A DNA stretch of 64,000 nucleotides from Bilabrum cf. latius (Eukaryota): contig OZ237772.1 of assembly GCA_965178125.1 (NCBI GenBank), positions 62,001-126,000 of the forward strand, given 5' to 3'. This document shows positions 25,592 through 60,390 of the stretch, piece after piece. The notes below the pieces were generated by a model. It saw only the letters and a list, made by a program, of their open reading frames with translations. It did not search any database and was not told where the DNA came from. Each line of letters starts with the position of its first letter. Position 1 is the first letter of the stretch. The translations under genes were made by a program, and so were the position numbers.

Positions 25592-27856
25592 TTAATCCCT
25601 ATACATCGCCACCCCCTCGCAGGCCCGCCGCACCTCGAGCCTCCACGCGGCCTCCTGGATCTCGATCTCGGCACTGCCATTTCCATTTCCACTGCAACTG
25701 GTACTACCGCAGGTGGCGCCATCACTCAATCCTACAGAATACCCCCCTTTTCCGAGCAGCTCCTTTGCGGCCTTCTCCTTCTCGCCGTTCCAACCGGGCA
25801 CCCAAGGCGCCGCCTCTTTGCCTTCGCCAATGTCCTTGCCACCTTTGGCCGACTCCCGCACCGCCACCAGCCCCGCGGCTGCCGCCCCAGCTGCCAGAGG
25901 ACCCGGAGCTGACAGACATCCCGCCTGCTTGCCCCCCCCGCACCGCCACATGAACCCAAGCGCGATCGCGTGGGGGGACGAAGCCCCGGCCGCGACACCC
26001 GCTCCCCACAGCACGCACAGGTGCTCCAGCTCAGGGAACACAAGCACACCCGCGTGCGCCGGCAGCTGGGACCGGAGCCTGGGCAGGTCAAGCACCGTGT
26101 CCCGCTCCCCTGTGAGGCACAATATCCTCGTGTCAGCTCCGATCGACTGGAAGGGGTAAGCGGGGGGTACGGAGTGCCCGGATGCCGGTGCGCTGTTCCC
26201 TGCCCCATCAAAGCACCGCAGCTGTCCCGACCGGATGGCCTGGAACCAGTGCTGCACTGTCCTGACGGACGCAAGAGAGAACACGTGCTGCATCAGACCC
26301 TCCATTCTGGCCCGAGGCACGGCCCACGACCCGCACTCCCACCCGAACAGGAACCGCATGCACACGAGGATCCAGTCTGCCCACGCCCCCACCGAGAGGA
26401 TCCGCTGCCACTGAGCCGCATAGGGCACCATGGCCATGCCGCCGAACAGCAGCCGGAACATTGTTCCCTGGTCCTCTGTCTCCAGCAGGGAGCTCACCAC
26501 GCTCCTCTGCAGGCCTCGCACGGCGATGGCGGGGGCCAGCGCCACGAAGCAGCGAACATTGTTCGCCAGAGAAGGGTTCGCTGCCAGGGAACAAAACGTC
26601 ACCGCCGTCCCCTAGCTGAACCCCACGATAGACACCTTCTCGGAATGCGCGGCGCCCAGTTTGGTTCCGCTACCGCCGATCCCCCCATTGCCCTCCTCGT
26701 CTTCCTCGCGTGGGTCGGCACCTCCTGTAGTGATGCAAGCCGTGCTCCCGTTCGACCCCTCGCTTTGCTTGCCCTCGTCCGCGCCCCCATCAGTATCCCC
26801 TACATGCCCGTCCAGCTGCCCCCCACTCGTCATCATTCTCACAGTAGCACCCGCCCCCCTCCTCGCCCCCCTGGCCCCCTGCATGGCCCGCACCATGGCA
26901 GGCACGTCCCTCCTTGCCACATCGTCCAGCCCGAACTTCCAGAACGACTCGGTGCCCTGGTGCCGCTCCGGGTCCGTGTGCTAGCCGGAATATCTATTTC
27001 CCCGGACGTTCCCCAGCCACACGTCGTACCCTGCCTCTGCCAGGAGGAAGCCCAACGACTCGTGCCCACCGCAGACGAACGTGTCGGAGCACTGCATCAG
27101 CCCGTGCAGGAGGAGCACAGGAGGGCCGAAGGTGGGGCTGTTCCGGTGTATAGAAGCGGTCGGGGGCTCGACGGGCTGTTGGTCGGGGTGGGTTGTACGT
27201 GTTCGTGATTGTGTTTGTGCGTGGCATGGCCCCGGCCCCGGCGGCACGCTGGTGCTGCTCGCCGCTTCCAGTGCCGCGGAGGCGGAGGCCTCGCTCCCCG
27301 CTGCTGTGCTCAAAGAAGGAGCGCTCCCAGAGATTGGCGCTGTGCTGCGATTGGCAGGTAATATGGGTGGGTCATGCTCCCCGGCGGGGTCAGTTGAGGT
27401 CGTTGTTTCCGAGGGCGGATGATGCACGGATTCTGCTCGGCTGCACTATGCTCCGTGCGCATTTCGGCCACTCGCTGCAACTCGAGCCAGCGGATCCAGT
27501 GACGGTGCGACAATTCTTTGCAAGCCGAGCACATATCCATCCGAAGTGATGGCCTGGTGCTCCTGGCAGCCCCAGCCGTGCTACCGGATCAAATCGGCAG
27601 CGGACGGGACAGCTGCCGCCCCGAGTTGTGTTGGTTGGCCAATGATGCCTTCGGCTCCATCGTAATCCTGCTGGAGACCTAGATGATACGCAAATATCCG
27701 ACGGAGCGAAGAGCTGTGCTGGTACAAAGTGTCCAAGACTGACGGAAATGGGAACGACTTGTACAGGAACGTCAGCAGCGCCTGGCCCGCTGCCGATACT
27801 ATCACCGTTGCAGCAACAAACAAGAGCCAGAAAGTTTTCCAAATCGCATGGATCAT
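25592..27856 (-). CDS. Acid lipase / steryl ester hydrolase (abhydro_lipase, gastric lipase/Tgl1-Yeh family)
   Basis: DLIR*HGWGCQEHQAITSDGYVLGLQRI; PVLLLHGLMQCS; LAEAGYDVWLGNVRGNRYS; FWKFGLDDVARRDVPA; nucleophile VGFS*GT; Asp in GERDTV; His in ELEHLCVLWG. TAG at 27581, 27446, 26981, 26612; ends TAA 25592. Confidence 0.92.
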
Positions 27857-28272
27857 ATCGATCTGCAGTTTGCCAGCAGCAACACGAATGGGGTCCGGAG
27901 AACCAGTTTTTGGTGGTGCTCCGAGTTGCCGCAACGGGTGCGAAGGGTTTCAGCCACAGGATTCAATCAAGGATGCGTAGGCGCTCACCAGTACAATCTG
28001 ATGAATTAATGTGAGAGGCAGTGCGTATCTGCGGCATAGTATTGTCAAGGCTGCACAGATAGTGTATATCCACCAACAAACTGTTGCTCCCTGCTGTCGC
28101 AGAGAAACATTTTGTGCGCGCCTAGTCAACAACATGGTCCGATGCGGCGCCGAGGGACAGGAATTAGGGATGTTACTCTCTGCGATGTCAAGATCGTACC
28201 CGCTAGAAAAGAGTAAGGGCATTCACTTCACGGTCATATTTGTTTCGCTCTTCTTTGGAAAATTTGCATGCC

Positions 28273-30144
28273 ATGGGGGCGCACAAAGCCAAAGCGGAGC
28301 CCTATGATCTGCTTAATAGCGCAGATTTATCTAAGAGCCGGAAAGCCGCAGAAGATAGCGACATCGATAGCGAAGACTCAAGCGATGCCGGCGACGGCCG
28401 CAGCCCCGGGACCGATCTGGCCCTTACGGCGCTTTCCAGAGGAGCCCCAGGCATGCTGGGGGATGCAGAGGTCCTCGAGAAGGCGCCTTTTTTGCGTTAG
28501 AGCCCGGCTGCCCTGCTTCGCGCGGCGGCTAGGAACTCCCGTGGTGGTGTCGGCGCCGCGCGCAAAGGTGCTGGTTCCGCAGCAGGCGCCATGCTGCGAC
28601 CAGCCCGCGTGCACGCGGTGCTTGCGACCATCTCCAACGGTGGTGTCCCTCGCCTGGCTACCCTCAGCAGCACAGAGGCCGCTGCAGTGGCGGTGGAATT
28701 CGCCTCGGCTGCCGTCGGTTGCAACCGCCTCGAGGGCCCAGCCAGCCTCGAGACAGCGGCGCACGCGTGCGGCAGCCTCCTCGAGTCTCTGGCGAGCTAG
28801 TCCTGGGGTGGGGGTACGGGGGGCAGGGGCAGCGCGGGGCGCGCGGAGGGGGGCAAGGCCGGCTGGGGGCTGCTGGGGGCCTGGCTGCCGTACGTGGGTG
28901 CGTGCGCGGCGCTGCACCACGCGGAGCTTGCGCTGGGGAACACGAGGAAGCAGGGTGCTGGTGCTGGTGCTGGTACTGGTGCTAGTGCTGGTGCTGGTAT
29001 GGAGAGTGATGGTCTTCTAGCATGGAATCGGCGGGATGCCGCCCTCAAGAATCGGATCAACGAGCTGATCCGATCCGCCGTGCTGGTCGCAGATGACGTG
29101 GTTCGTGAGGAGCCGTGCGCCCGGTGGGTTGGGGAACAAGCGGAGGAGGCGTCCGAGGGTGGTGAGGCATGGTTCATGGGGTCGATCGGAGCAGCGCTGG
29201 GGGCAGCGGGTGGGGTGGCATCGGGGTCGTCGATCGGAGCAGGAGCCCCGCCTCGGTCCTCGCTGCGGGGCGGCTGGCTGGGAGCAGACGCCATGGAGCA
29301 GCTGAGGTCTCTGTCCCTGGGCGACGCGGGGCGGGAGCGTGCCAGCGATGAAGATGAAGAAGGAAACCTGCGAGGGTTCGTCGTTGACAGCGAGGAGGAA
29401 GAAAGTGAAGATGAAGATGCGCAGGAGAGTGAGAAGGAGCACGATTGGGACAGCGATGAAGATGAAGATAGGCACCGTGGCAAGCGCAGGGGCCGGACCA
29501 GCGGCAATGGGAGCAAGCGACGCGGTGTGACGAGTGTGAGCAGGGGCAAGGGACGGCTTCGCCGCCGCAGGACCAGCGGCCGGGCACTGGTGGAGAGCCC
29601 GATGTCCGAGGGGGTCGGTGCTGGAACCAGCCCTTCCCTCTTCCCTGGTCCTGGTCCTGCAGGTGGCATGGCTGATGGAGGAAAGGCCACGCGGAAGGAA
29701 AAGAGTGCGAAGCAGAAGAAGAAAAAGAGAGGGAAGGACAAGGACAAGGACAAGGACAAGGACAAGGACAAGGACAAGGACAAGGACAAGGACAAGGACA
29801 AGGACAAGGACAAGAGCAAGGACAATGGGTCAAGAGCCGGCAGGGCATTCGGCTCCTTGCCAGTGGTGGACCTGACCACTCCGTCCCCTCAGAGCAAGAG
29901 CAAGGGCAAGAGCAAGGCATAGCCCGAATCTTCGGCAGCGATGGTCGCTGGCCGGAAGCGGGCGAGGGACGGTGCCATGCCGCCTGCAGCCGCAGAAGCA
30001 GAGAGCCCTGTTGCCGTCGGGTCCAAGAAGAGGAAGAAACACAAGAAAGACAGGAGAGTGAGAGGCCGAAAGAAGGGTGGCAAGCATGCAAAGGCAGTGG
30101 AGGATAGCAAGCAACCAGCCAAGAGACGAAGGATTGCTGATTGA
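28273..30144 (+). CDS. Hypothetical, probably nuclear, protein with acidic and Lys-rich tail
   Basis: One frame across TAG 28498, 28798 and 29920; TGA 30142; basic NLS-like clusters. Start codon uncertain. Confidence 0.65.
29734..29814 (+). repeat. (AAGGAC)13 coding microsatellite encoding (KD)13
   Basis: Perfect hexamer run visible in sequence. Confidence 0.95.
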
Positions 30145-30254: not shown

Positions 30255-31341
30255 TCACGCAAGCACAGCCAGGAGTGCATCTTTGTGGCTGCCTGCCCAC
30301 TCCTTTACGGTCTGCTTCTTCGGATTGAGCGCCTTCATATGCTCTAGGTCGCACACGTAGGCGGGAGGTCCTGCTGCGAAGACGGCAGCAAACATGCGGG
30401 CGAGGTCGTCCGCTCCTGGGAACCCGAAAGCCTCGTAGCCCTCCCGTGACACGGGGTAGAAGTTGATTTTCTTGCCAGTGACTTCGGAGAGGATGCTTGC
30501 AACGTCTGCTGCAGCTAGCTTCTCGTTGGCGAGGTCAAACGTACCGCCAATCTTCGATGCGTCATCGAAAATGGATGCGATTGCTGGGCCGCAATCTTCG
30601 ACAGCTACCCAAGCCAGCTTAGTATCGCCAGTTGGCATCGCAATGACGTACGAACCATCTTCCTGCTTCTGCGGCTGCATGGACATGAGGAAATTGTCCA
30701 AATAGCAGCCGAAGCGCACGAACGAACACGGGAGTTCAATTCTGCGCATGTACTCCTCGATATCAGCTTTCGCATCAAAGTGCGGCACAATGAAGTCACC
30801 ATTCTCGTTGGAGGTATTTTTTTGAAGAGGCTCGAAGGGAGCTCCAACCAGCTTGCCATCCTGCATGGAAGGGACCACATGGAATGGGCGAACAGGGCAT
30901 GAGCGAATATCAAGGGACAGAGGCAACCACGCAGGAAGCATATCTGGTTTGTCCCACCTTATTGCACTTCCGTGTATCAAACAAGGTTGAGAAGATGACG
31001 TGCTTCAGGCCAGCGGCTTTGCACGCATCTGCTATCGCCGTACCGTGAGCGATCTCCTTGTCCGCAGACATGAGTGTCCAGTATGATGTGACGACGTACG
31101 CGCCATAGCACCCGTCCAGTGCTTTGGCCAATGAATCTTTATCTTCGGCATCGGCTTTCACTACCTCAGCGCCGGCTTCAGCGATGGCCTTGGCCTTTGC
31201 GCCATCCGGGCTTCGAGTCACCACGCGTACCTTGTACTTGCCAGCACTCAGCAGAGCCGCAGCAACTGAGCCGCCTTGGCTGCCAGTTCCCCCAAACACT
31301 GCTATCACCTTATCAGTCGCTTCCTCACCGACGGCTGCCAT
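30255..31341 (-). CDS. NmrA-like (HSCARG/NMRAL1-type) atypical SDR
   Basis: Rossmann IAVFGGTGSQGGSV, VPHFDAK motif; intron 30861-30957 (GTGGGA...ATGCAG, phase 0) joins the two ORFs; TGA 30255; no TAG used. Confidence 0.93.
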
Positions 31342-32280
31342 TCTTCCAATTCGCAAGGGTTTTGTTGTGGTGTGCGGTAGCGCTCAGCTTGGCGCGGGCT
31401 TCTAGAAGCCTCTGTCCCCAACAGCTGGAGTGATACCCCCCAGTGGCGACCCCATTTCAGCCAGGGGCCCACTCTAGCGCCGACGTGACGCGTAGATCGC
31501 GTATAGATTGTCTACTACAAAGACTTCGCGAGCAATGGACCCGGCACGGGTACCAGCATCAGCTTCATCAACAGCAGTAGCTTGGGACGGCAATCCATGC
31601 TGCTCCCCAAGTACGCGGGTCCGTTCCTCAAGGGGCTGCAAGGTCCTATGAGGCTGCTGCTGAAGGGGTCGTGCTGGGCTCCTCCGAGGTACAAGTCTCT
31701 GCTGGAGTCTCTGCTGGAGTCAGTGCTTGAGCACGACGAAAGCAGGTCTCCCAACTCATGCTGTGGACCACACTGTGCCGGTGGTTCTGCTGCGGGGACA
31801 AATGAGCAGCTGTGTTTTCCTGCATGTGACCAGTATGCCGTGCAGCGAGCTCTACAGTCGGCCACCGCCGGTTGCTCAGCCTGAGACACGCTGACCTCCG
31901 CCGCCTGCAGTCCAGAGCAGAGTGACGGGGGTGCGATGGACACGACAGGGAAGCGAACGGGAATAAGGGGATGAATCCGTCGGCGCATGTCATGGAAATG
32001 GCGAAGGTGAGACAAGAGGCACAGCCCGGGAACATCACAGCCAGCCTCTCGCGACGTCAAACCCTCAGGCCGAGCAGAGCTGCAAGGCCTCGGAGCCTCC
32101 GAGCCACCGGTAGAGCAGGCCCTGGAAGGAGGAGAACGAGCAGGAGGCGCGTGGCTCCTGGGCCTGATGTTCTGTTACAAGGGTGCAATGTAATGCTCAT
32201 GCCATCCATACGTGCGGCATGCCAGTGGTTGCCGCTGGCGATGTCGAGGGGATGACGAGTGGCACCCCAGGCAAGAAGTG

Positions 32281-35200
32281 ATGATCGCGTGTTTGCGTCA
32301 CTCTGCCAGTTTTGCAAAAGAAAGCTTTGACCTCATATTATAGAATAGTCTAGACTCGACCCAGGGGTGCTCTGAGCGCATTCTACTTGCTACACTCGAC
32401 AATCTTGTTCAATCAGCGAGGCCAAACCAGAGCCTCTTGTTCAGCAGTATAGAATCGGACATTCTAACGGTACTATCAATGCAAGGTGATTGGGAAAGTG
32501 GGTATAGTCGTGTCAGCACGATCGTTGGTGCTTTGGAGCTAGGATAGGAACCCTCGGACCTTTCGAATGGGCAGTATACTCCATTGATCACAGCGATACT
32601 TAATCACAGGTTGGCGGATGCCCTTACACTTCTCATGCACGGAGCAGACCCTTTTAATGCGTGCATGGTTACATTTTCAACGGGCTCAATTGTTGATTTG
32701 GATGCGCTAGAGCTCACTGCAAGCATAGGCGACTACCCAACCTTTGTCGCCTTGGTCCACTGGGTGACGTCCGGAGGGCAGTACCCTGGTAGTTTATCCA
32801 TGCAGCAGTATTGGAATTATGTGAAAATAGCAGCAAAGCAGGGTTGGTGCCAAATGGCATCTCTGGTAGTCGCGATAATCGCTCACCCAGTGGGCGAGCA
32901 TCCACCAGTCGACAAAGCAGCTGCCCGGCCACCGGAGTAGCCAGCTTCGGACGAGGCTGGGCTGGAGCAAGCTCGCGAGCAACAAAATCTGTCAATCGTG
33001 GGATCAACAATCGAATCAATTGTGAGAACCTGTCGCGACGACGCTGCTGCGACCGTCCTGGAGGCCATGGGCGAGCACGGCATGCTCACGCTCGCCCTCC
33101 CCGGGCTCCATCGCTCGCTCAGGACGGCCGTGCAGCGACGCATGCCACGCACAGTGGAGCAGCTGCTTGCAGTGGGTCTGGATCCTGACTTGCAATTCGA
33201 GCACGATACCATGCTGTATGACGGCCGCCGAGTGGATGACCTGCGGCACACCGCCCTCACGCTCGCCTGTGCCACGGGCAGCCCATCCATGGTCAAGATT
33301 CTCCTCAATGCAGGCGCCAGCGCGACTCTCTGCACGCTGAGCACGAGGCCAGACGAGAAGGAGGAGCAATACTACCAGGAAGGGTCCCGCGAGGCCGAGT
33401 GCATGGACATGGTAAGGGGGCAGCGAGGCGCCACTTGGCTCCTGCACGCCCCCGTCCAAGCCAAGCAGCTGCCTCTGGAGGCCAAGAACAGCCCCTGGTT
33501 CCGGTTTGAGCACAGACTCAACTCTCCACTGCGAGCCAGCATGGCTGCCCCCGGGCTCGCGCAGCCCATGGAGGTGCAGCGCGCACTCGTCACGTGGGTC
33601 AAGAAGTGGCACTCGGACGGCGCGGGCGCCTTCGCGACACACGACCTCGGGGCCGTATACGACTGGGCGCTCGACCACTACTCGGAATCGGAACTGCAGC
33701 TCGTGCACCTGGCCGTCGACGAGAAAGAAAAAAGGGCACGCCAGAGGGACTTCAAGCGGTACTGGAACCTGCGCAAGGAGCTCTTCAAGCCCCTCAGGAA
33801 GCGAGGGTGGGCGGCCCCTTGGGCCAAAGCACCGGCCGCCGTGAACACGGAACCGCTGTTAATTGAGGCAAGCATCTGGGCGGGTGACTACGGTGGGGCG
33901 CTCTCCCTGATTCAGATGCTTTGGGGGTCCAGCGTGCACGTCTCAAGGCGGATGCCTCACCGGTTCGAGACCCAGTGCGAGGACGAGGAGGCGCCTTTGC
34001 AGCGACCCACGGGCCGGGCACACCGTGACCCGCTCCGGCACGCTCTGCTGCACTTTGGTTATCTCGCCATGCGTCCGGCAGAGAAGAAGGCCGAGTTCAT
34101 GAGGATTAGCGCGCGGCCTGGTGCCGAGTCTGCCTACAAGGTGTGGGAGCGCAGGCCTGTGCCGAGGGACAGGGGCAGGGTGGCGTTCGTGCGAGAGCTA
34201 TTGCGGCTGGGCCTGGATCCAGACGAGCCCATACTGGCCAAAGAGGACGCCGGCCCGAGCCAATCGCATGCAAAGCGCAAGGGGGGTCTGGTGGAGCATG
34301 CGCTGCGAGAGTCTGAGGGGACGGTGCTGAGGCTATTGCTGGAGCATGGCGGCAGCCTGCCTTTAATCCGTGTGACGAGGACCAGGTATGTGGAGGAAGG
34401 TGCAGCGGGTGGAGAGGAAGCGACAGGTCCGAGCTTTAGCTTTGCACCGAACGCGGGGCAGCAGGTCTCGGTGCAGGAGACTGTCGACCTCGACTCGGGC
34501 GACCCTTCCCGTGACTTCGAGAAGCTGGTCTGGCTCATGCTCACGAGGCGAGACAGCGATTTACCATTCCGGATGTATCGCGCACTGGCCGAGGTGATCG
34601 CACTCGGCATCGGTCGAGGGCAGTCTGCAGCGGCTACGATTGACGCCGCCTAGTCAGACTGGAGGACCAGCGCTAGCATGGTGCGATAGAGCCCGGTGTA
34701 TCGGCAGTGCGTGACTTTGGACACGCAGTGGAAGCTCTTCGAGACGGGCCTGATCTACAGGTGCAGGTGGATGCAGGCAGCATTTGAGCCAGAGGCGGTG
34801 CTGGAGCGGCATGTACCCCAGCTTTGCGGGCTGCTGGACGTGCGCAAGCTGTGGGATTGTTCCATGATGGAAAGGCTGCTCGGCCTGCTGGAGGCATGCG
34901 GCAACAAATCCGTGGGGGCTGAGGCGATCCCTTCTTCTGGATCTGGATCTGGTGCTTCTGGTTCCCTCGGCGAATCCGACCCGCCTGGTTCCCTCGGCGA
35001 ATCCGACCCGCAGCCGTCTTTTGCCTTGTCAGTGGAGTCCAGGTTGCGGTGTGCTAGGGGTCTACTGCAGAGCTTGCCCGCTCCTTGGATCGTGGTGACG
35101 AAGTGGAAGAATGGGAAGCAGACGCAGACCAGACGAAGGAGCCGGAGCATCATCTCCACTGACATGCTCGCGCTCGTCACACGGGGAATCACCCTGCTGT

Positions 35201-37043
35201 CGTCGGGGTGGCGATACTCCGAGCAAGGGGAGCAGCAGTGGTCAGCACCCGGTGACACGGGCTGCGGTTCGGTGCAGATTGCAGGGGCTGGAATGTGCCA
35301 TCAAGCCGGGCTAGAGTAGGGGCCCCCAACCCAAGTCATCAAGGAGGTAGAGCAATTGCAAAAGGACCACAGGAAGCACGCGGAAGAGGTCAGTCAGCAG
35401 CAGCACGTGGCTGACGCGCTGGAGGGTATGCAACGAGAGCACAGGAGGCAAGCGACACTAGGGGTCTAGCAGTAGATGCAACAGCAGCAGGAACAGCAGC
35501 AGCAGCAGCAGGAACAGCAGGAGGAACAGCAGACGCAGGTCAATCGCCATGCAGCAAATACCTCACATTCCGGACTAGATCGCATGGACGGCGAAGGGGG
35601 AGCAGGCCAAGTTGATGGTGATGCTGCAACCTAGCTGGGCCAGGTGGGTATGCTGCAGAACTGCTTGACGAAGGTTCTGCAGTTTCAAGAGAACGATGCA
35701 GAAGGAGCTAGCACTGTTCTCTCGCTGGGTGTCGACCCTGATGCTGGAAATGGCGGGAGCTTTGGTGCAAGCGATCGGCTGTGCGTGGTGGCGGGGGCCG
35801 GGACCGCGCAGCAGCTTGAGCAGATGCTCAAACACGGGGCAGATCCTAACAGGTCCAGCGAGACCTTTGGGTGCACTGCATTGCAGATATCGCTCATGCG
35901 GCCGCACCCATTGCCCTTTGTCGAAGTGTTGCTGCGGTACGGAGCAGATCGCCGCGTTGGTGTGACCTGCAGCGATCGCGACCTAGGGAAGGCTCAGTAG
36001 GGCGGCAGCGGCGGCAGTTCTGGCCACAGTGCGGCTGCTGCAGCCTTCCGCTGGCATGGGACCTTCCGGCCCGAGGCACCCTTCTCCATGTTTGCGCAGT
36101 TCGACACGTTTTTGGGGTCTGTGCTGCGTCCATGCGGGTACTTCAGCACTCCGCTGATGCTTGCTGCTGCCCGCAATGACGTCACGCTGATGGAGGCATT
36201 GCTGACCTGCGACCGTGACACCAAGCGCTCCATGTTTGCAGCTGGCCCTGACGACTTGAACAGAGACTCGGTCGTCACGCCGCTGCACCACAGCCTACTG
36301 CACGGTCTCACGTAGGCATCGCTGGTTCTGATGCGGTACGGTGCCAACATCTCAACCGATACAATCGAGGCGATCCGCCCCGCCGCACATGAGGCTGCAG
36401 GTGCGGCGGCTGTCACCCGTAGCGGCGCTACCGGGGCAGGTGCTCCTCCTGTTATCAGCGTACCTGACGTATTGATGATAGCCGCAGTTGAAGCATTCCG
36501 GCCAGATGTGGGACACGTGTCCAGCCTGGTCGTCCTAGAGACGATTTTCATGCACTGTCTCTGGGCACCCGAGGTGCAGGCAGTGCTGCGGAAGGATCCC
36601 AAACGGATGGTATGGTTGGCCAATTGGAGGAGGGGAGCGGAAAGCTGGGAGGGGCAGCCGATCCAGATGGGTAGGAGGGTTTGCCTGGCTCGGTGGAGGC
36701 GGGCGTGTGAGGTGCAAGCGCAGGCTGGGGCGAAGATGTGTGCTGCAATCGATGCATAGCAAGCCATGGAAACGGCTGCCAAGGAGGAACAGCAAGCCAT
36801 GGACGCGTTTGTGCAGCGACAGCAAGCCGTGAATGCGACCGAAGTCGAGCAAGGGCACGCAGTAGAAGCAGTGCAAGGAAGACCTGCTGGCAATGCTCCA
36901 TTTGGTGCGGCCTCCAGCAGTTCGTCAGCCGCTACGGCTCCCACTGATGGCCAATTGGAACCCAGCCAGCCGATCTACGTGAATGGCATGCTGCTTGGCT
37001 CACTCGGGCAGTCGCGGGCCTCAGTAGATCCGCAGTTACAGAT

Positions 37044-37076
<33 letters not shown>

Positions 37077-45200: not shown

Positions 45201-45708
45201 CCTTCGGCCTCATCCTAGTCGCTCCTTGGCGGTTCAAGCTTTGCAAGCGAGGCGCTGTCGAGGCTCCCAGAGTAGATTTGGTCAAGATGCTGGTTTCACG
45301 AGGTGGCCGCCGCCCAGAATCGATAGCACTAGCACCAAGCGAAAAATGCCCATCTGTATACCCGTACTGCATGCCTGCTTCGCCACTGCTACGCCTCCTA
45401 TGCCTTTTACTGCGAGAAAACTCCCGCTACAGTTCTGGTGAGGTGTCATCCCGCGAAGACTGCGTTCTGTCTCGATTACCAGGGGCAAGCAGCAGGCTTG
45501 GGTTGAAGATATGACGCTAATCTATCGCACGTGCAGGTCGCTCAACCGGTCCAGTCTCCGGTGACCGCCCAGCAGCTGAGAGAACTGGGCTGGGGTGCGG
45601 GAGTTGCTCTGCGTCTGCAGTCGATCTGTTGTCGGCAGCTTCTCGGGAACTCGCAGAAGATTGTGCGCGTATATTAAGAAGCTTATCTGTGGGCAAAACA
45701 TCGCTCAT
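42253..45708 (-). CDS. Dual-specificity protein phosphatase (~1,150 aa) with long low-complexity extensions
   Basis: PWQVLPGLLLGSKR*ATDTAVLSRLGVTHVLCVA; P-loop VHCRLGVSRS; IVAFLV..RPEANPH. One frame with 11 TAG (45517, 45427, 45193, 45169, 45157, 45151, 44746, 44311, 44185, 43663, 43651); ends TAA 42253. Confidence 0.88.
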
Positions 45709-48819: not shown

Positions 48820-49982
48820 TCACAGCTGCCCGTCCCCCACGGTGTCCCCCGCGGCGCCCAGCTGCACGTCAGACGCAGCAGCGCCGGAGAACATGGCATC
48901 GTCATCATGCCCCGCCCTCGCGGCGCGGTCCTCGAACCTCTCCGAGGAGGTCATGAGGCTCTGGTTGTTGGCCCCACTGTCGGCGGTGCCGGCCAAGTAG
49001 CATCCCAGGAGCGCCAGCCAGATGGGCTGCAGGATGAATCCCACGAAGGCGATGGAGATGCCGGAGATGACAGAGAATAGCCTCCAGTTGCCGAAGCGCG
49101 CGAGCTCCAGAGCAAAGTTGAGGAAGGCCAGGGCGCCCGCACCCGCCCCGATGTACCCGTGCCACGTGGGAAGCACGCCGAACCTGAAGGTCGCAGATGC
49201 AACCGCGATCAGCCCGATGGACAGGAGCAGCTCGTCCAGCGCGAAGAGCCACAGGGAGGACGACTGGGAGATGAAGTCGGCGATCCATAGCACGCGGAGG
49301 GCGGTGGAATCGAGCTACCAGTCGTCGCCCGACATCCAGTCAGCTGCGGTGCTGCGGCCCGCGCGGCCCACCAGCTCCAGCCCGGTGATGATGGCGGCAC
49401 CAGCGAACGCAGGGACGAAGACCGAGGTCTCCATCACGCGAGGCCCGAACATGGCACTCAGCGCCAGCAGGGGAGGGATGACGGCGAAGGCCGCGATTGC
49501 CTCCACCACGTCGAACGCGATCTGAGGGCCCAGGACCTTCCGGCGGATCTCGTAGTCGTTCTGGATGCAGATGGTGACGTCGGGGGCGGGCGCGTCGTCG
49601 TCCTTGGAGGGAAAGTTCGCCAGCTCATTGCGGAGGTCGTCAAAGTCGCACCCGTCCACCTCGTTGTTGCTGGCCTGCGGTGCCACAGTCGACGGTGCGT
49701 TTTATTGTACATGATATAAACAAATCAAATCGCATCGAAATGCCTTATTGTTGGCTCCACGGCAGGCGGGAGCGCAAGAGCGAAGGTTCTGGCATCTCCC
49801 GATTGCGCTCCATTGCCTGACTTCTGCTAGCACCCGTCAGCATCATGACCTATTTAGCCAGTATGTAGTCTCACAGTTATTGCGATTCCGATCACCAGTG
49901 CGGTAGACAGGAAAACAGCACCTGCTGCCGAGAATGCGCACACCTTGGGGACAGTTGCGTCGAATGGTGCCGCGTTCGACAT
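48820..49982 (-). CDS. Multi-pass (about 6 TM) membrane protein, ~320 aa
   Basis: Exon 1 MSNAAPFDATVPKVCAFSAAGAVFLSTALVIGIAIT; intron 49675-49874 (GTGAGA...CCGCAG, phase 0); one TAG at 49315; TGA 48820; several hydrophobic segments. Confidence 0.75.
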
Positions 49983-50683
49983 CTTAAACCAATACTGCGG
50001 GATCAAGCGAAGCTGTTAGCGCGGTCAAAGATCAATCAAATCATGCTGCGGAAGGGATCATGCAAAGACGGTGTGTATGGCCACAATCCGCCCAGATACA
50101 AGAATCACCTTTCCCCGCAGGTGCTCGCTCGTGCATGCTGATCAATGACTGTAGGCTGGCGGAGTACCAAAGTACTTCTTCTGTTTACATATTTAAGCAA
50201 GGTGCTATCGATTCCCTAAGGGAAAACGAATTGGCTATCAGTGGGTTCAGGGTGGAGGCAGTGTAGATGAATCAATACCAAATTTTCAACGCTTTTTGCC
50301 ACACATTCCTGCTGAATATCCAATCATATAGTCATGAACCCAATCATGGCAACATATTTGCAAGAGATACTCACAATAAGGAGGAAATGAGCATGTTGCA
50401 CTCCCAAAGGTTCGCATCATTCAAAATACAGACTAGGCTGTATACCAACACCTTATAAAAGCCTCCAAGCCGTTTCAAACTTATTTTAAACGTGCGGAGG
50501 ACCAGAGAGTCAGCCACAGTTATCTGTTAGATAATCCAATATTCAATGATGGTTGGATCCTTTGTTGCAAAATTTAAACATATTCTTGATTCGTGTGGCC
50601 TGCACCATGCTCCTGTTTCTTTCGTCATCGCAGCAACAGCAAGTGCAGCAATTTAGGCGTAGGCTTTGAGCACTCGCGGCATC

Positions 50684-53600
50684 ATGTCCGAATCACAAGA
50701 CGTCATATCACACCAAACTGCCATCCTTGGGTCCAGACTTGGCACGCAGCTTCCTCAAACATGTGTTGCTCCAGCCAGGAGGGCTCTTGTTGCCGGAACG
50801 TTGCCGTCCACGTCTGGCCAAACAGGTGCTGAAGCAGCCAGACTGATCCGTATTGGTGCATCGACACCGGCCAATGACTGGCTCACATTGGCTGTCCTAG
50901 CTCGACGATGGGCGGCGGCCGACGCGGAGCAGGAGGACGCGAGACGACGGGCTGCCAGCGGCAGCGGCGGCGGCAGCGGAATGGAACCCTCTGGTGGGGC
51001 TGCCGTCAGCGGCTTCTTCCGGTCGGTTGCAACCGCACCGGCCTCGTCGGGTACCGGCACGCCAGCCCTTCCCCCGTCGGTTGCAACCGCAGGTGTGAGC
51101 GGGCTGTGCGTGGCGCTGATGGCGGCCATGTGGCCCCTCCGGGCCGGATCCAAGAACCCCCTGGCCCGTGCATCGCACGACGGTGGGGCTGCCGCGGCCA
51201 TGCAGGACGATGGGGTCGATGCAGGCGATGCGGAATAGGATGCAGCGGAGGGGGCGGCAAGTGGGGGCAAGGGCAAGCGTGCCACTGCCAGCGGCGCCGC
51301 GCATGCGGAACCAGCTGCGGAAGAAGACATCCCGGCGGAGGCTCTGCCCCGTGCGCTGGCCGCGGCAGCCGCCGTCTTCTCCATCCTGCCGTTGCGCGGC
51401 GCCCGCGCTGCTTGCGGAACCTCGAAGTCTCTCCTCGATCGGGCCCTCAGGGGTCTACACGCGGCTGCTCACGCCGCGGTGGCCGACGACGGGCGCCGCG
51501 CAATCATCCCAGCGGTTGCGGCCAGCAGCACCATCGTGCCTTGCACCCTCAGCGGCTGGCTCCCGCTGCTCCTGCCGCTGGCAAGGGAGACGCTCCGAGG
51601 GGACGGGTGCTCCCCAGTGGCCCTGGCGGAGTCCAGCGCGGCCATCGAGAGACGGAGAGTCAGCGGCGCCGGGCAGCCAGGTTCCGCAAGCGGAGGGGAT
51701 TCGGAGCTTATTCATGGTGCGAGCGCGGCGCTTGCGGCGGCGCTGTCGTGCGCTGCACGCAGAGCAGCCGAATCGGAGGCGGTGGTCGGCGCCGCGCGAT
51801 CCAGCGGAACCAGTAAAGAGGCAGAGGGCTGGCGTGGGCTCGCGAGACTCGCCGCGGCTGCTTTGCTGGACTGCTCGCACTCGTCACACGGCGATCCCCT
51901 GGAGCTGGCCCGGAAGACGCTGCGCCAGCTGAGGCCGCTGGCAGTGTTCCTGTCCTCCGGCGCCGCGCAGACGGCCCTGTCTCGAGGTTCCGCCGCGGTG
52001 GGCTCGTCGGTCGCAAGCACGGCCCTGCCTTCATCGGTTGCAACCGCTGCCAGCGGGCGATCGATCGAGGCCTGGATGGGAGCCCCCTCGTGGGGCGGGG
52101 GGGGGGACGGTGCCGCGGGGGCAGGACGAGACGGTGGCGGTGATCAAAACGAAGATGAAGATGAAGACCAGAACGTGAGCAGCGGCGACTCCGACAGCGA
52201 AGATGAAGATGAAGAGGAACAAGGGAGAGCCCGTAGGTTTGGCCATCGCCACAGGGCAGCAGCAGCAGGCGCGTCGGGCAAGGGCAAGGGCAAGGGCGGA
52301 GGTGCTGGCGGTGCAGCGGGGAATCCACCGGTAGATCTGGCCGGTGCAGCTGCGGCCCGCCTGCAGCAGCTCTCACTCCGCTGCAAGAAGTAGCTGTCGG
52401 CGCAGACCGCCTCGCGGAAAGCCGCCCAGGCGGCCACCGCGGGGGCGCGGGCCGCCGCCGATGCCGCCATGGCGGTGGCCGGGGCGATCGGCAGGGGCAG
52501 GGGTCGGGACGGGCGGGGCTGTGGTGGCGGCTGCCGCGCGGGGGAGAGGGAGGAGGGCGGTGTGACGAGTGAGATGGGGGGGGAGGAAGAGGGGAGGTGG
52601 CTGCTGGCGGCGCAGGCCGCGGCTGGTTCCGCTGGCAAGGCGCAGGCCGCTGCCGTGCAGCAACTGCAGCGCACGGTGGTGCAGACGAGGGGAGCCGCTG
52701 CCGTTGCGGAACTTGCGTTGCTGGCGCCGCGCGCGGTACGCTGGGCCATCGCGGCCGACGGAACCGGGGCTCGGCTCGCGCGGCGCCCCGCCACCCTAGT
52801 GTTGCTGCAGCACTGCCTCCACGCCGGCGATGGCGCCGCGCCGGGAAGCGGAACCTCGGGGCGGGGTGGTGGTGTGCGCGCAGCGGCCGCCGCCGGTGCT
52901 GCCGGCGGCCCCGCCGCGGCCCGCGAAGCTGCCGCTTTGGCCACCCTGTCCCTCTTGCCATCCTTGCCGCACGCGTGCCGGCGGGCGGCCGTGGCTTTCC
53001 TTCGGCGCCTGAGCCGCTCGTCGAGGCAAGGCCACAGGGCGGCAGCTGCCTACACCGCCGGGGCTCTTCTGGCCGTGTCGGGGGCTGCCGGGACCGGGGC
53101 CCTGGGTAGCGTGCTGGGGGGCGCCGCGCAAAGCGGAACATCCACGGCCCTCCGACCCTACGCGATGGCGGAGTCTGACGGTTCCGTGGCGGGGGGCCGC
53201 GAGGTTCCGCAAGAAAGCGGCGCCGCGCGCGCTGGCCGCGCCCTCCGCTGGGACGAAGAGGAGGCGCCCGCGTCGGAAGCGGCTGCGGAAGCGGCTGCTT
53301 CCGTGGCTGCGGCAGCCGAGGAAGAGGAAGACGATGAGGAACAAGACAGCGACATGGAAGCAGGGTACGAGGAAGAGGCCAAGTCCACGCGGAGGGGTCG
53401 CAGCGGTGCAGCGGCCATGCAGGACAGCGAAGACGAAGACGAGGACGAGGAGGAGGAGGAGGAGCACGAGAGGGCTGGTGGGTCAGGCACGCCGTCCAAA
53501 CCGCCGCTGGTCGGTACTGCGGCACCCGCCACGGGTAGTCGCAAATCCACCCGTGGATCCAGGAAGCGCTCCAGTGGCAGAGGCCGGTCATCCTCCCGCG

Positions 53601-56600
53601 GCGGCCGGCGGCGTAGCAGCGGCACCGCGAGTGTATGTTCCGCAAGCTCCGGCAGGCTGTCCCTGGGCGGCGGCGCCGCGGCCCCCGAGGTGCTCGCCGC
53701 CGCTGCCGCCTCCCTTCGAGGCCGGCCCACGGTGCTGTGCCTTGGCATGGTGGTGGCGGGCGCAGCCACGGACAAGGGCTCCGCGGTGCGTGCCAGAGGT
53801 CTGGCTGCCATGGGTGAGGTGCTGGAGGCGTGCGCGGGAGCGGAGCACTGGGTCGCGGGGAGGCTGGCGGGTGCACTGCACGATAGCGCGGGGGACAGGG
53901 AGGCCAGGGTCAGGGCGGCGGAGGGCGCGGCCGCCGCGCGGCGTCGAGCAGCGGATGCCGCCTGCGCGCTGCTGCTAGCGCTGGCGCTGCGGGCGTCGGA
54001 TGGGGGCGGCGACGGTGACGAGGGCGAGGGCAGCGACGGAGCCGGGGAGGGCGGGGAACGCAATTCTGGCTCCGGATCCCTTCACGAAGGAACAAGCGGG
54101 GCGGTGGCCGCCCTCCTGATGCGGCTGGACGACGAGGCCGCGGCCGTGAGGAAATCGGCTTGCAGCGCGCTGGGCTGGCTGGGGGTGGCGTGCGCGGGGC
54201 AGGCCGGCTCGCTGGCGGCGCAGGCCGCGGCGTGCGGGACCAGGGCGGCGCGTGGCGCCGCGCGTCAGGGACGTTCCGCGGGCGGACTGCAGGGGCCCAA
54301 GGGGTCGGTGGCCGCGTGGGAGGCAGGGAAGCAGCGGATCTTTTTCGATTCCGAGTCGTCGCTGCGGAGCTCCATGGGTGGCGGCGGGGCGTCGTCGGGT
54401 GCGTCGGCGGGTCGAGTGGCCCGTCCGCTCGCCCTCAGTTGTTCCCTGGGGACCTACACTCTCGAGGTGCTGACGGTGCGGGCCACGGACGGCTCCACGT
54501 CGGTGCGGCGTGTCGTCGCGGAGGCGCTGACGTCCCTGCTGATGGGACCCCGGTCAATCGAGTCGCCGTCCGCCGCCACTGGATCCACCGGTGGATCGGC
54601 GGGCGGGGACGGCTGGTCGCACGCCGGTGCCAGGTGCAGCGGCGCGGTTCGCGCGTGGGTCTCTGCGGTGCTGCCGCTGGTGCGCGACGACGACGAGGGC
54701 GTGAGGGGGGCGGCGGGTGCCATGGTGGCCAAAGCGGTGTGGGGACCGCTGGTGCACTGCACGAGCACGCTCGGTGGAGGCGCAGCGCGGAGCGGTTCCG
54801 CAGGAAGTGGCACGGGCTCGTCACACCCCTGGCCCCTTCTGTTCGCGGTGACGCAGCACGGCGGCTTGCGGAACTGTTTGCGCGGCGCCGTGGCTGCCCT
54901 CATGGCCAAAGAGGCCGGAGACACCCAGGCTGTGGGTGGTTCCGCAAGCGCCGCGCATTCCATGAAGGCCATCGTCGCGGCTGCCGTGCGGGCCGCAGAG
55001 ACGGACGACGACGCCGGAGCCGGGGCGGGGCAGGGTGCCGGCGGTGCGAGCGGGGTGGCGGCGCCGCAGAGATCGGTTCCGCTGGAACGGCTCTGGAACG
55101 CGCGGCGCCGGGCCTCCGCCCTTGGCCTGCTGGCAGAGGCGGCGACCGCCGCAGCGGCGAGACCCAAGCCGGCCGAGGCGGCCCGCACTTCCGGTTTGCC
55201 GGACGCCGATTGGGCGCTGGCCCGGCTCCGAGCAAGTGCTCCGCTACTGGTCGCAAACGAGCCGCAGACGCGTGACGCTGCCGCAGCGGGATGCGCCGGG
55301 GCTCTGCGGCTTCTGGGGGAGGCTGCGGGAGCGGCGGCCGATGCCGCTGCGTCTGCCGCCGGCGATGGCGGAGACATGTCCGGGGCCTCCAGCGGCAAGA
55401 AGAAGTCGTCATCGTCGTCGTCATCAGGTGCCGCGGCACGGCTGCCCGCTCGTCACACCGCCGCGATCGCCTCCGCACCCGCTGCGCGACGGGCGGCGGA
55501 GCGCTGGCTCGTGAGCTGGCGACTCCCGGCCGATGCCGCCGCGGCCGCCGTCGGTGCACTGCGGAACCTGGCCGCGGCGGAGGCGGCGGGCGCCGCGCGA
55601 TCAGGTTCCGCAAGAGCCGGGATCCGGCCGTGGTGGCAGTCCGCCGCGGAGGCAGCCGAGGCGGGGTGCGGCGCCGCACTGGCCACGGCCGCCGGCGGTT
55701 CCGCAAGCGCGGCGCCGATGGTGAGCAGCTCCGGCGCCAGCACAGGCTCCAGCGAACCCGACGATGAGATCGCCCAGCCGCAGCCCGCCCCCTCCGCCCG
55801 CACACTGGCAGCCTGCCTCAGGTGCCTGGGCCACCTGGCCATTCAGGGCGTGGACGAGTCGGGGGAGTCGGCGCGGCGCCGCGCAGAGCGGAACCACGTG
55901 GCCGCGGCGGTGGAGGCCGCGCGGGCCCCCATGCCTTCGCGACCGGTTGCAACCGACGCCGCCATCGCCCTCCTCGCCCCCTCCGTGGGGGCAGGCCGAC
56001 CGGTTGCAACCGCGGTGCGGGCCGCAGCGGCAGCAACCCTCGGTGCACTGTGCCTTTCGGCTCCGGACGGCTCCCCGAAGGCCGCAGCTGTGCTCATCCG
56101 GGAGGCGGGGGCGGGGGCGAGGGCCGCGCACGCCTCCCTGGGGCACGCCGGTGTGACGAGTGCGGCGGCGCACGGCCGGTCCTTCTTCGTCGGACGAGGG
56201 CAAGGGCAGGGACAGGGGCAGGGGCCGGGCAAGTCCTCCTCGGCCCCTAGACCGGAACAACTGCCCCCCGCCGCTGTCCGCAGGAACGCCGTCGCGGCTG
56301 TATGCGACATCCTGCGGCGGCACGCGCAAGCCACGGCGGGCGGGGGTGGGGCCGCTGCACTGGAGACCGTGGCCGCCGCCGGGTCATGGGACCCGCACTG
56401 GGGCGTGCGGGCCGCAGCGCTGACGTCACTCGGGTCGTTGTGCTCCAGCGGACAGGCCAAGTGGAGGAGGCCGCTGCTGCTGCGGTGCGTCGCGGCTCTT
56501 GGTGACCCGCATCCTCAGGTGCGGGCCGCTGCCACGTCAGCGCTGGAGCAGCCCGCCGCGGCGTCTCTGTTGCCGTCTTTGCTGTCCCCCGCTGTGTACG

Positions 56601-58807
56601 AGCTGACCGGATGCACGGCGCACCCGGGCATGGCGGTGGGAGTGGAACCGCTCGACGCGAAAGCTGCAGCGGGTGCCATGCGGGACGATGACGATGAGGA
56701 TGAGGATGACGATGACGGAGATGATGATGATGACGGCGATTTTGGGGCGCGAGGGGCGCGGTCTGCTTCCGGCGCCGCGCGATCGGAAGCGGAACTACCC
56801 CCGCATACGGTGCTGGGCCGGCACAGCCGCGCCCGCCGCCTCGTGGCCTACCGCGCCCTGCTCCGATTGATGCCTCACGCGGGCGTGCTGTAGGCGGCCG
56901 CCAAGCTGTTCGCGGACTCGATCGGAGCCGCCGCCCAGGGAGCCCTGAGGATGCCTCAGCGACGATCGGAGCTGCTGGTTGCAACCGCACCGTCGGGCGG
57001 GCCCTCCACTCCTCAGGGCAGGGCAGGAGCAGGGGCAGGGGCCGATCGGTCGGGTCTCATGGGTGCCTCCTTTGTGCTGGGGAACAACGCGGGGGAGGTC
57101 GGTGGCGGGTGCGCGGCGCCCTGCAGGGTAAGTTCCGCTAGCCTGCTGGCTGAAATGCGCGGCGCCGCGTACGACGCCGCGTGCGGTGCGCTCGGCCCAC
57201 AGGCCGCAGGTGCCTACGGCAAGGAGGAAGAGGACCTTGGAAATGAAGATGAAGATGGAAGCCCCGAAGATGGGGCGGGTGGTTCCCGCGGGGAAGCCGA
57301 GGGGGCGAGGGCCCTGGGAGCCGTTGGACTGCGCGGCGCCGCGGGAGAGGCCGGTTCCGCAGGCGCGGAGGCCATGCTCTGGGAGGCCCTTCTGGTGCTG
57401 GGGCTGCCAGAGGCGAAGGGTGCTCTCCTGGACGGGGGGCGCCGCGCGGGGGGAGGAGCCGGTTCCGCAGGGGACGACGACGATGGGGCGGCGGCCGCGG
57501 CGGCCGCCGATGCCGCCGCGGGTGGAGTCGCAGCGGCGAAAGCAGCGCTCATGGAGGCAGCCGGTCGCCGCGTGCTGGGCCAGCTGGCGGGAAGGCAGCT
57601 GGAGGAGCAGCTTGTTCCCTGGGCCTGCCAGCTGCTGCCCGCCCTCAGGAGGCTGCGATCGGGACCCGTGTCAAGGGCACTCGTCCGCTGGCTGGCCGGC
57701 GCCGCGGGCCGACTCGGAGCCGAAACGTTCCGCAAGGCGGCGGGGCAGCGGAAGGAAGTCGCCGCGGAGGCGCTGGGCGTCCACGAGCGGGAGAAGAGGG
57801 CCGCGGGCAGAATGCAGAGGGAGAGGGCGAGGGCGATGGCGGCCGAGGCGGCGGGCAGGGAACAAAGGGAGCAGGAGGAGGCCGCGCAGGTTCGAACCCC
57901 GGCGCCGCGCATGCCTGCCGTCACGCCCACCGCTGGGGATGCCGGCGTGGGGGCGGCGTCGGCTGCCGGCGGGCGCGCTCGTCACACCGGTGGCGTGCGG
58001 TCGCTGGCGATGCTGGGGTCTGCCATGAGCAGGGGGCTGCAGAGCGGGCTGCCCGCTGGTGTGACGAGTGCAGCCTCGGGAGCTGCGGGCGAGGAGCCGC
58101 GCAGGGCGGCGCGGCGCGGCGCCGCACGGAGTTCCGTGAAAAAGGCGCCGCGCAACGGTGGTTCCGGAAGCGGCGGGTTCGGCGCGCTTGGCGCGTTGGG
58201 CAACCTGGGTGCGGCGGCGCCGCGCAACGGTAGTTCCGCTGCCGCGATGGAGCCGGTATCCCCCGGCACCCCGGGAGCCGGTGGGGTCCCCTCCTCGGGG
58301 TCTCCGGCCGGTTCCGCAGTTGCGCAGCGCCGCGGGGTCGCGATGTCGGCGCTCAAGAGCCCGCGGCTGCGAGGTTCCGCAGCGCGCGGCGCCTCCGAGA
58401 AGGGAAGGCCAGGGACGGGCATCTCTGCCATGCCGCATTCCGTGTCGGGCGGTCTCCTTGCGGCGCTGGGCCGAAGCAGCGCCAGCGGAACCACCGCCTT
58501 GGTGGACAGTGTCGGTCCATCCACGCGCGGCGCCGGTGGGTCAGGGGGCGCCGGTGACGAGGGTGGCGAAGGTTCGTCCCAAGTTCGCCTGAGCCTCGGG
58601 GGCCGGAGCGGCCGCGGCCTGGTGGAGGCAGGGGCAGGGGCAGGGGGCGATGGGGGCAAGTGGGCCGTGAGCCCCGATGACGTGGGCAATGATGGTGTGA
58701 CGAGTGATACGGGGGGGTCTTTGGCTGGGCTGCCGGCCGAGCAGGACGAGGCCGGGGAGGAGCAGGCTGTGGCGAGCGGCGGGGCAAGTGCTCCGATGCG
58801 GGCATGA
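50684..58807 (+). CDS. NCAPD3: Condensin II HEAT subunit CAP-D3-like protein, inflated to ~2,700 aa by Gly/Ala-rich insertions
   Basis: HEAT/Cnd1-type blocks DKGSAVRARGL, RLDDEAAAVRKSA, WVSAVLPLVRD, AVRRNAVAAVCDI, DPHWGVRAAALTSL..AKWRRPLLLRCVAALGDP, RVLGQLAGRQLEEQLVP in the order recalled for CAP-D3. TAG at 51236, 52391, 56891; TGA 58805. Confidence 0.8.
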
Positions 58808-59097
58808 TGGATTCGCTCGTTAGGGTTAGGGTTAGTGGGGGGGGGGGCATGTCTGGTTGCGAATGCGTGTTTTATGATTTGTTTGTCAGTCGATGATATT
58901 GGATGTTTTATCAGCTTTGAATGTGCCCGCTGGAGTGGAACGGGCGGTGTGCGGCCAGCCAGCTGGACGCACAGCCTGTCACTGCCAGCAGCCGCTCCCA
59001 GCAATCGTCATTATGCACGATTCTGGTTTGTGTTAGGAGGCAACGAACCGGCACACAAAGTCCATAGTTGTCTGAATCAGTTGCTGAGATCGTAACT

Positions 59098-60390
59098 ATG
59101 TCGTAGTCGGGGGGCTCTGTAACCTCATACGAAGAGTGGAAGCGATAGCAGCAATCGAACGCGCAACAGCAACAGGCAGCAGTTGGCCAACAGCAAAGTG
59201 GGCTGCAGTCTAACCACGGCCACGTGATGGGTACTACGCAATTTACCCAAAGTCGGCCATCCGCTGCGGGTGCCGGGCAATTTGCGGTAGGGTACGGAGG
59301 GGTTGGTCTTCAACCAGTTCAGCATGGTCGCGCCTTGGTAGCCCCTCAGTTGGCACATAGCACCGCCGGATAGCATCACGCGCCATATGGAACTGGACCT
59401 ACATTAATATCACAGTGGCAGCAAGGGACATCGATGCCACAGGGTTCGAGCACGACTGGGCCGTCATCATCCCAAACCGCTGCCAGTTTTTCACGCGGCG
59501 TTAGCAGCTCTACCGCACCCTCGTCCAGCGCGACTAGCGCCTCTGGGCATGCACTGCTAGGTGCATCAGCTATGGGAAGCTCGTCAGCTTCTTCTGAAGC
59601 AGCGTCTGCGGGGCCTCCACCGCAGGAGCCGATAGACAAGCGATGGCGAGTGCTCGTTTCGCCGGAAGGCAAGCCCTACTGGTTCAACATTAAGGCAAAC
59701 GCAACCCAATGGGAGCTTCCCTCCGAGCAGGAAGTCCCGAAGGAACAGGCGGAGCAGATGATCGCAGACGCTCTCAAAGCAGACGAGGAGGCGTGGGCCG
59801 GGGCGGAGGAGGTCGCCACCGGCGGTTCCGGAACTGGCGCCGCGCAATCTGATGGGCTGGCCGCCGTGGAGGAGGCTGGTCGGGCGAGGGAGAGGCTCCG
59901 GAGGCGGGCCGCAGAGGCCACGCGGGTGGCTCGGGATTTCCTGCGCATGTGTGACGAGCGAGGGATCCGGAGCCTGAAAGATCTCGCTACGGCGGAAGAG
60001 GCTGCCTCCGGTGATGATGGTGCTAGCGGTGTGATGGGCGACCCTCGTTTCCTGGCGGTAGGGTCTGCCGAGCGGCGGCGGCAGGTGCTCGGTGTCCTCC
60101 TGCAGCGGCGGCGCAGCAGTGGTGGAACTGGATTGGACGGGTCTGAAAGTGCACGCAACATCACTTCAGGGAATGGGGATCATCCAGTCGGGAGAGGTGG
60201 GAATGAGGTGGCTGGTACCAATGGGACACCAGCACCAGCTCCAGCACCAGCACCGGCGACTGCAGGGGCAGGGACAGGGGCAGGGGCAGGCACTGATGAT
60301 GGAGCTGTGAAGAGTTCTTCTAGTGCTACTGCTAGCGGCAGTGCAGCTGTTTCAGACAGCAAGGGTGCCAGCACAGTCCATTCATTCTAA
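59098..60390 (+). CDS. WW-domain protein with an FF-like domain and Gln-rich N-terminus (PRP40/TCERG1-like modules)
   Basis: WW: WRVLVSPEGKPYWFNIKANATQWELP; FF-like DFLRMCDE..GDPRFLAV..ERRRQV. TAG at 59104, 59146, 59371; ends TAA 60388. Alternative start at 58921 possible. Confidence 0.75.

Follow-up and report, generated by a model that had tools for sequence, protein, structure and literature searches.

The subject of this analysis is the meaning of the stop codons in Bilabrum cf. latius, studied from a stretch of 64,000 nucleotides of its nuclear genome (GenBank assembly GCA_965178125.1, contig OZ237772.1, positions 62,001 to 126,000 of the forward strand; G000:C38:62001-126000 in our numbering), which we call the window. 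With TAG read as glutamine, the window contains 16 complete genes, 12 with TGA ends and four with TAA ends, and none ends in TAG, in agreement with the counts of an earlier sequence-only reading of this DNA. Each of the four TAA codons terminates a long frame. By frame and Pfam match, they close an acid-lipase-like gene (PF04083/PF00561; minus strand, 25592..27856, 4 TAG, TAA at 25592-25594), an ankyrin-repeat gene (plus strand, 32281..38079, 15 TAG, TAA at 38077-38079), a dual-specificity phosphatase gene (minus strand, 42253..45708, 11 TAG, TAA at 42253-42255) and a WW-domain gene (plus strand, 58921..60390, 4 TAG, TAA at 60388-60390). Together, the 16 frames comprise 16,832 codons, of which 90 are TAG, 147 CAA and 492 CAG. 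Reading TAG as sense produces long open frames, for example that of an FG-GAP/TIG membrane protein gene on the plus strand with 3,286 codons and 14 TAG (4432..14292, TGA at 14290).

The sequence-only reading had also described the DNA beyond the TAA ends as non-coding in appearance and had stated that TAA does not occur internally. The former is borne out by a codon score trained on sequence outside the window and applied to the 30 codons past each stop, TAG or CAG. It is negative at 16 of 16 gene ends. Internal TAG codons are followed by a negative score in 15 of 90 cases, comparable to CAG (79 of 492). The latter is circular within the window, where frames are defined by TAA and TGA, and holds only for the aligned codons described below. 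Because of this circularity, and because the four TAA genes of the window are individually weak evidence for a UAA stop, the claim rests on genome-wide tests, which covered about 1 Mb of the 48.6 Mb assembly (111 contigs).

Internal codons were decoded on 19 dynein heavy-chain genes. The profile was built from 46 of 120 homologues, and six-frame translations were aligned to it with all three stops masked. The 51,329 high-confidence codons include 194 TAG, 292 CAA and 2,056 CAG, and neither TAA nor TGA occurs among them (0 each), while about 28 TAA would be expected if TAA:TAG followed the ratio of CAA:CAG. The single internal dynein TGA, of lower confidence, sits at an intron edge. TAG decodes as glutamine with a log-likelihood of 104.9, which is 64.5 log units above the runner-up glutamate (40.4), and tyrosine falls to -110.9; as meanings of UAG, tyrosine, glutamate, leucine and tryptophan are rejected by the decoding. 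Each of the 61 sense codons keeps its standard meaning in the decoding. The insertion of glutamine at UAG is assigned here from DNA and aligned proteins. TAG also occupies the conserved glutamine of what we take to be the DTAGQE motif in eight Ras-family loci and of the presumed GGQ and NKQD motifs of the Arf loci, and the nucleophile motif GFS-TAG-G of the window lipase aligns with GxSQG of gastric lipase 1k8q. Two TAA within Pfam matches were set aside, since each is found at the edge of its match, the first within a GT..AG intron and the second within an inferred intron. The dynein genes (L100-L137) differ in their use of TAG: the lowest count is 3 in about 4,700 codons and the highest 60 in about 4,600, and TAG use increases, like that of CAA, as the GC content at third codon positions (GC3) falls.

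For the terminal codons, we considered gene ends that are fixed by homology or by a motif. These 60 ends comprise 47 TGA, 13 TAA and no TAG (0/60; upper 95% bound about 5%). They stem from the dyneins (15 TGA and 3 TAA in 18 of 19 genes, one end lying outside the sequence analysed), from Ras genes with a cysteine motif (16 TGA and 4 TAA in 20 of 30 loci, the other 10 either without such a motif or being upstream exons), from Arf genes (6 TGA and 3 TAA, 9/9 loci), from ubiquitin-conjugating enzymes with tails of at most 25 residues (10 TGA and 2 TAA in 12 of 30 loci, 18 being left out for long tails, upstream exons or duplication) and from eRF1, which ends in TAA. Twin Arf genes terminate at the identical position, L171 with TGA and L172 with TAA. 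Over 84 scored open reading frames (ORFs), 13 of the 97 glutamine codons among the final 30 codons are TAG, compared with 99 of 1,115 in the preceding part (p 0.14), and the +4 base of TAG is like that of CAG (p 0.23). There is no sign of a context-dependent UAG stop of the Condylostoma or Blastocrithidia type: TAG is absent at the 60 ends without being depleted over the final 30 codons, and TAA is never internal.

Very probably, the nuclear genome uses a fully reassigned code in which UAG is glutamine and UAA and UGA are stops. Such a code already exists as NCBI table 15, which the sequence-only reading left unmentioned. UAG is found at conserved glutamines, UAA is terminal and not internal, UGA is terminal and the 61 other codons are standard. 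The proposed decoupling of UAG from UAA, and with it the distinction from table 6, is supported by aligned columns and fixed C-termini alike; the two observations that had been named as speaking against it, internal TAA at conserved columns and TAG at true C-termini, did not turn up.

RNA-type data and an AT-rich region of the genome provide two further views on the code. None of the sequencing runs is recorded as RNA; three were guessed to be RNA, and the guess is supported by splicing, as they show GT..AG joints that are absent from a DNA run. Of the 31 in-frame TAG in five genes, contigs from these three runs pass over 16, colinearly and with no other letter there. In the ankyrin gene, 6 TAG lie within one unbroken contig (X5), and a further contig (X6) spans the lipase TAA and ends 60 nt past it. 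The AT-rich island at C5:270586-283656 or wider (at least 13 kb; L271, L254, L030) has 33-40% GC and encodes an rve integrase, a GIY-YIG nuclease, a C5 methylase, a P-loop ATPase and a tRNA-Met(CAU). In its nine ORFs (2,256 codons), TAG exceeds CAG (29 versus 17, with 77 CAA), and of the eight stops observed, five are TAA and three TGA. By definition, TAA delimits these ORFs; the methylase domain is nonetheless whole (profile positions 17-322 of 324). The island looks like an insertion of the kind that we take to be Polinton-like or virophage-type. No capsid gene was identified in it, and the search for nucleocytoplasmic large DNA virus capsids gave no match, with controls likewise silent. Viral scans with the ATPase-like and integrase ORFs of the island found no relative. 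Two viral relatives were found for the methylase; L255 (52%), the one that was examined, lacks TAG in its genes.

A tRNA gene with anticodon CUA is located at G000:C23:907607-907679 (69.8 bits), the only one found; the tRNA-Gln genes are two with CUG and one with UUG; no tRNA gene was found in the 64-kb window. By ARAGORN, none of five extra nuclear matches to the CUA/UUA anticodon pattern is a tRNA. Judged by its sequence, the CUA tRNA was not copied recently from tRNA-Gln. With tRNA-Tyr it has 6 of 7 acceptor pairs and 4 of 5 anticodon-stem pairs in common, where the other 29 parsed sequences reach at most 3 and 3. Its D arm is like that of tRNA-Gln(UUG) and tRNA-Glu(CUC). By the identity table of PMC9976931, in which eukaryotic glutamine elements are blank, it has lost the tyrosine determinants A73 and G34 and carries 5 of 9 E. 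coli glutamine entries, namely G73, G2:C71, G10, U35 and A37. C34 is compatible with the pyrimidine-34 element given in the available text of PMC1483225, which also reports that E. coli GlnRS slightly glutaminylates a yeast amber tRNA-Tyr mutant. We give an origin of the CUA tRNA from tRNA-Tyr slightly less than an even chance. Several atypical tRNA-Met(CAU) genes that are nearly identical, and a tRNA-Pro(UGG) resembling them, have a D arm of the glutamine/glutamate type (L030, L258, L261, L262, L267-L269; contigs C5, C7, C3, C9 and C25). One of them lies within the AT-rich island, and these tRNAs may travel on the elements.

A single eRF1 was found (C35, L005), with two in-frame TAG (L005:3898-3903, 4068-4070). 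We compared it with 85 homologues, using human numbering by offset. The protein retains GTS, E55, NIKS and S70. It carries S60V (seen in 1 of the homologues), L69Q (in 4), N129S (in 2) and I35V, F117P and K130H (in none), and the glutamine at position 69 is itself encoded by TAG. In the parts of PMC5304391 available, L69A is tied to UAG read-through in the rhizarian exLh and T32G to that in Iotanema spirale. The N domain carries many further changes, so that each of these substitutions is at most a candidate for the causal one. Residual termination at UAG would curtail the synthesis of eRF1 itself, which makes a feedback possible. Among the homologues, P0083 shares V60 and Q69, and P0007 shares Q69 and S129. 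Database entries for this eRF1 are without the N domain. A second match to eRF1_1 (C20) was set aside as similar, by sequence, to a protein that we presume to be Pelota.

Several observations weigh against a complete reassignment of UAG alone, and we discuss them together with the alternatives that they favor. Under table 6, UAA and UAG would both be glutamine, TAA would be merely rare at high GC, and the apparent TAA ends would be read through to TGA. The genome is indeed GC-rich, the C-terminus is conserved in none of the four TAA genes of the window (homology of the lipase ends at residue 619 of 754), those ending at 38077 and 60388 score near zero already upstream of TAA, and the next TGA lies 25-89 codons on. 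A tRNA with anticodon UUA was found neither by the Rfam search, where 63 of 780 candidates were scored, nor by two pattern searches, which are blind to intron-bearing genes, so that its absence is not proven. Read-through of UAA is at odds, however, with the complete lack of TAA in the aligned dynein codons, with TAA directly after the prenylation motif of four Ras genes, at three dynein ends and at the end of eRF1, and with the AT-rich island, where TAA closes ORFs that use internal TAG freely and prefer CAA to CAG. That these searches found no UUA tRNA also speaks against it. We consider table 6 extremely improbable. The same holds for a standard code in which UAG-to-CAG RNA editing or small introns remove the TAG codons; no observation was found in its favor. 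Editing and hidden introns are unlikely because the spliced contigs pass over TAG unchanged, within the limit that contigs lose rare variants; moreover, a CUA tRNA gene exists.

Less remote, yet still improbable, are two readings in which UAG has a divided meaning. The codon could be leaky or context-dependent, inserting glutamine internally and terminating at some ends as in Condylostoma, or being read in competition with eRF1. TAG accounts for only about 8-12% of glutamine codons, one tRNA gene was found for it, eRF1 keeps T32, the residue mutated in Iotanema, and L69Q also occurs in 4 of the 85 homologues, whose own code may or may not differ. The TAG share even rises slightly in the last 30 codons, although not significantly. 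None of the 60 fixed ends uses TAG, however, the codon is found 16-20 codons ahead of conserved dynein ends and upstream of a CaaX motif, and it has no +4 context bias. Alternatively, UAG could be ambiguous between glutamine and glutamate, or tyrosine, given a tRNA whose acceptor stem is Tyr-like and whose D arm and anticodon loop are Glu-like. The tRNA scores 50 with tRNA-Tyr(GUA), 44 with tRNA-Glu(CUC) and 43 and 42 with the tRNA-Gln genes, the score with tRNA-Tyr being unexceptional overall (fifth of 199 different-isotype pairs; mean 37.9, standard deviation 5.7). Its anticodon loop is one base from that of tRNA-Glu(CUC). In terms of the table of PMC9976931, the tyrosine determinant C1:G72 is retained and the E. 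coli glutamine elements U1:A72, G3:C70, G36 and U38 are missing. Furthermore, TAG stands at 10 glutamate versus 17 glutamine columns, compared to 51 versus 254 for CAG and CAA together (p 0.017). A glutamine/glutamate mixture nevertheless gains just 0.13 log units over glutamine alone, at a best glutamate share of 3.5% that drops to 0 in high-GC3 genes, and any tyrosine share worsens the fit. Part of the mild excess at glutamate columns comes from the glutamate-dominated profile column 1192, where three dynein paralogues (L106, L111, L128) carry TAG.

For the table 15 reading, we propose the following mechanism. The CUA tRNA would read UAG and would leave UAA unread, because C34 cannot wobble to A; the apparent lack of a UUA tRNA would keep UAA a stop. 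With G73, G2:C71, G10, U35 and A37 present and the tyrosine determinants A73 and G34 lost, the tRNA is probably charged with glutamine. The altered N domain of eRF1 (L69Q, S60V, I35V, F117P, N129S, K130H) most likely recognises UAA and UGA, with A at position 3, but UAG poorly. The code change would have occurred after the split from Cafeteria and would be common to at least one sister species.

The best named matches of this genome are to Cafeteria roenbergensis (eRF1 69%, dynein 68%). In a dynein tree, from one gene and a quick search, the organism is the sister of Cafeteria and one JGI protein inside the stramenopiles (SH-aLRT 99). By inference, the organism is a Cafeteria-related stramenopile, a bicosoecid. 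Unlike the eRF1 described here, that of C. roenbergensis keeps TASNIKS, L69 and N129, and its dynein of 4,812 residues is annotated whole, from which Cafeteria would use the standard code. In a metagenome scan that gave 70 loci, the sole close relative, L179 at 82% nucleotide identity, shows TAG for a glutamine that is encoded by CAG in this genome; this one codon suggests a clade with UAG as glutamine. The mitochondrial contig (C111, L050-L053; 38,401 bases, 21-27% GC) uses table 4, with TGA as tryptophan, a UCA tRNA and TAA gene ends. The organism's own 18S gene (L007, L008; G000:C12:948771-1031308) is short, with a length of 1,700 nt, and its sequence diverges even at the 5' end, which is usually conserved. 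A second 18S on G000:C95 (L006, L069) differs from the tandem array on C12 and probably belongs to a co-cultured organism; we take it to be dinoflagellate-like. Table 4 has been reported for the mitochondrion of the bicosoecid Cafileria (PMC6723347, as far as its available text goes).

Table 15 has been reported for Iotanema spirale, Hartmannula sinica, Trochilia petrani and Protocruzia tuzeti in the accessible parts of PMC5304391, PMC11687900 and PMC10553269, to which the following comparison is limited. Iotanema shares UAG as glutamine and UAA as stop, and a CUA tRNA was predicted there. It is a fornicate known from its transcriptome only, with the tRNA unseen, whereas here the CUA tRNA gene is present. 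Its eRF1 carries T32G, in contrast to T32 intact and L69 replaced by glutamine in this genome, and the predicted origin was from tRNA-Gln(CUG), while the tRNA described here is nearer to tRNA-Tyr (PMC5304391). The other three are ciliates with the same codon table and no context-dependent UAG. In the phyllopharyngeans H. sinica and T. petrani, UAA is the dominant stop, UGA makes up 8-13% and no suppressor tRNA was detected (PMC11687900), unlike this genome with about 60% GC, a dominant UGA (47 of 60) and a CUA tRNA gene. UAA is the dominant stop in Iotanema as well, for which likewise no CUA tRNA was found. In the rhizarian exLh and in phyllopharyngean TARA metagenome-assembled genomes, UAG alone is reassigned too, but to leucine with tRNAs derived from tRNA-Leu (PMC5304391, PMC11687900); the eRF1 of exLh is altered at the same position, L69A versus L69Q here (PMC5304391). 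The table 6 organisms (Tetrahymena, hexamitins, ulvophytes, Amoeboaphelidium) share UAG as glutamine, but there UAA is glutamine as well via a UUA tRNA, while it is a stop here (PMC11687900). A non-standard stramenopile nuclear code like this one was not met in the literature found, for which subscription journals lay largely outside the search and supplements were excluded, and a term search of the accessible text of a Symbiomonas paper gave no mention of the code.

What we describe appears to be a known code in a new lineage, for which the genes of both the decoding tRNA and the release factor are identified; the lineage, the GC-rich and UGA-dominant setting and the tRNA look new, and the split of UAG and UAA itself is not. 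UAA and UAG nearly always change meaning together. In the literature found, so far as it was accessible, UAG alone as a sense codon of nuclear genomes outside ciliates is described for Iotanema and the rhizarian exLh, both from transcriptomes only, and the alga Scotinosphaera is mentioned. Here, a contiguous genome, spliced RNA-type data, a CUA tRNA and eRF1 come together with Cafeteria as a close relative whose own eRF1 is ordinary. Therefore, it becomes testable which eRF1 changes drop UAG but keep UAA and UGA, and from where a glutamine-inserting CUA tRNA arises. The change is seen in a GC-rich genome with UGA, not UAA, as main stop. Under standard gene calling, the majority of genes in this lineage and in its viruses come out truncated. 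A wider scenario would be the following: this is the first non-standard nuclear code of a stramenopile, its GC-rich, UGA-dominant setting speaks against AT-driven codon capture, a tRNA-Tyr became an amber suppressor by GUA to CUA and then gained glutamine identity (A73 to G, U2:A71 to G:C, D arm of the glutamine/glutamate type), eRF1 changed at an L69 that is itself now spelled UAG, integrated DNA viruses already follow the code, and the group is a candidate host for giant viruses with TAG as glutamine. Taken jointly, we regard this scenario as doubtful rather than likely. Giant-virus isolates all come from standard-code hosts according to the available part of PMC13524828.

The remaining genes of the window all end in TGA. 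On the minus strand, these are a low-complexity ORF with 4 TAG (1388..3907, TGA at 1388), an RCC1-repeat gene with 3 TAG (22593..24569, TGA at 22593), an ORF of 245 codons and 1 TAG that has no Pfam match and is PH-like by eye (24566..25303, TGA at 24566), an NmrA-like gene with an intron at 30859-30957 (30255..31383, TGA at 30255), a spliced coiled-coil gene with 5 TAG in its last exon, all under RNA-type contigs (38472..41883, TGA at 38472), a membrane protein ORF with 1 TAG (48820..49701, TGA at 48820) and an ORF with 7 TAG (60513..62471, TGA at 60513). The plus strand carries, besides the FG-GAP/TIG gene, a gene for an FG-GAP and tandem-repeat protein with 6 TAG (17193..21524, TGA at 21522), a spliced gene with GT..AG joints at 28010-28103 and 28212-28325 and 3 TAG in the last exon (28015..30144, TGA at 30142), a thioredoxin-domain gene with 7 TAG (46241..48427, TGA at 48425) and a HEAT-repeat gene of 2,753 codons with 5 TAG (50546..58807, TGA at 58805). 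Within the FG-GAP and tandem-repeat gene, positions 18700-20500 form a mucin-like tandem repeat with a unit of about 20 codons, rich in alanine, serine, threonine and proline. The stretches 14300-17100 and 21500-22600 are lower in GC and contain no clear gene. Both read similarly, near 16200 and near 22000, and may represent a dispersed repeat.

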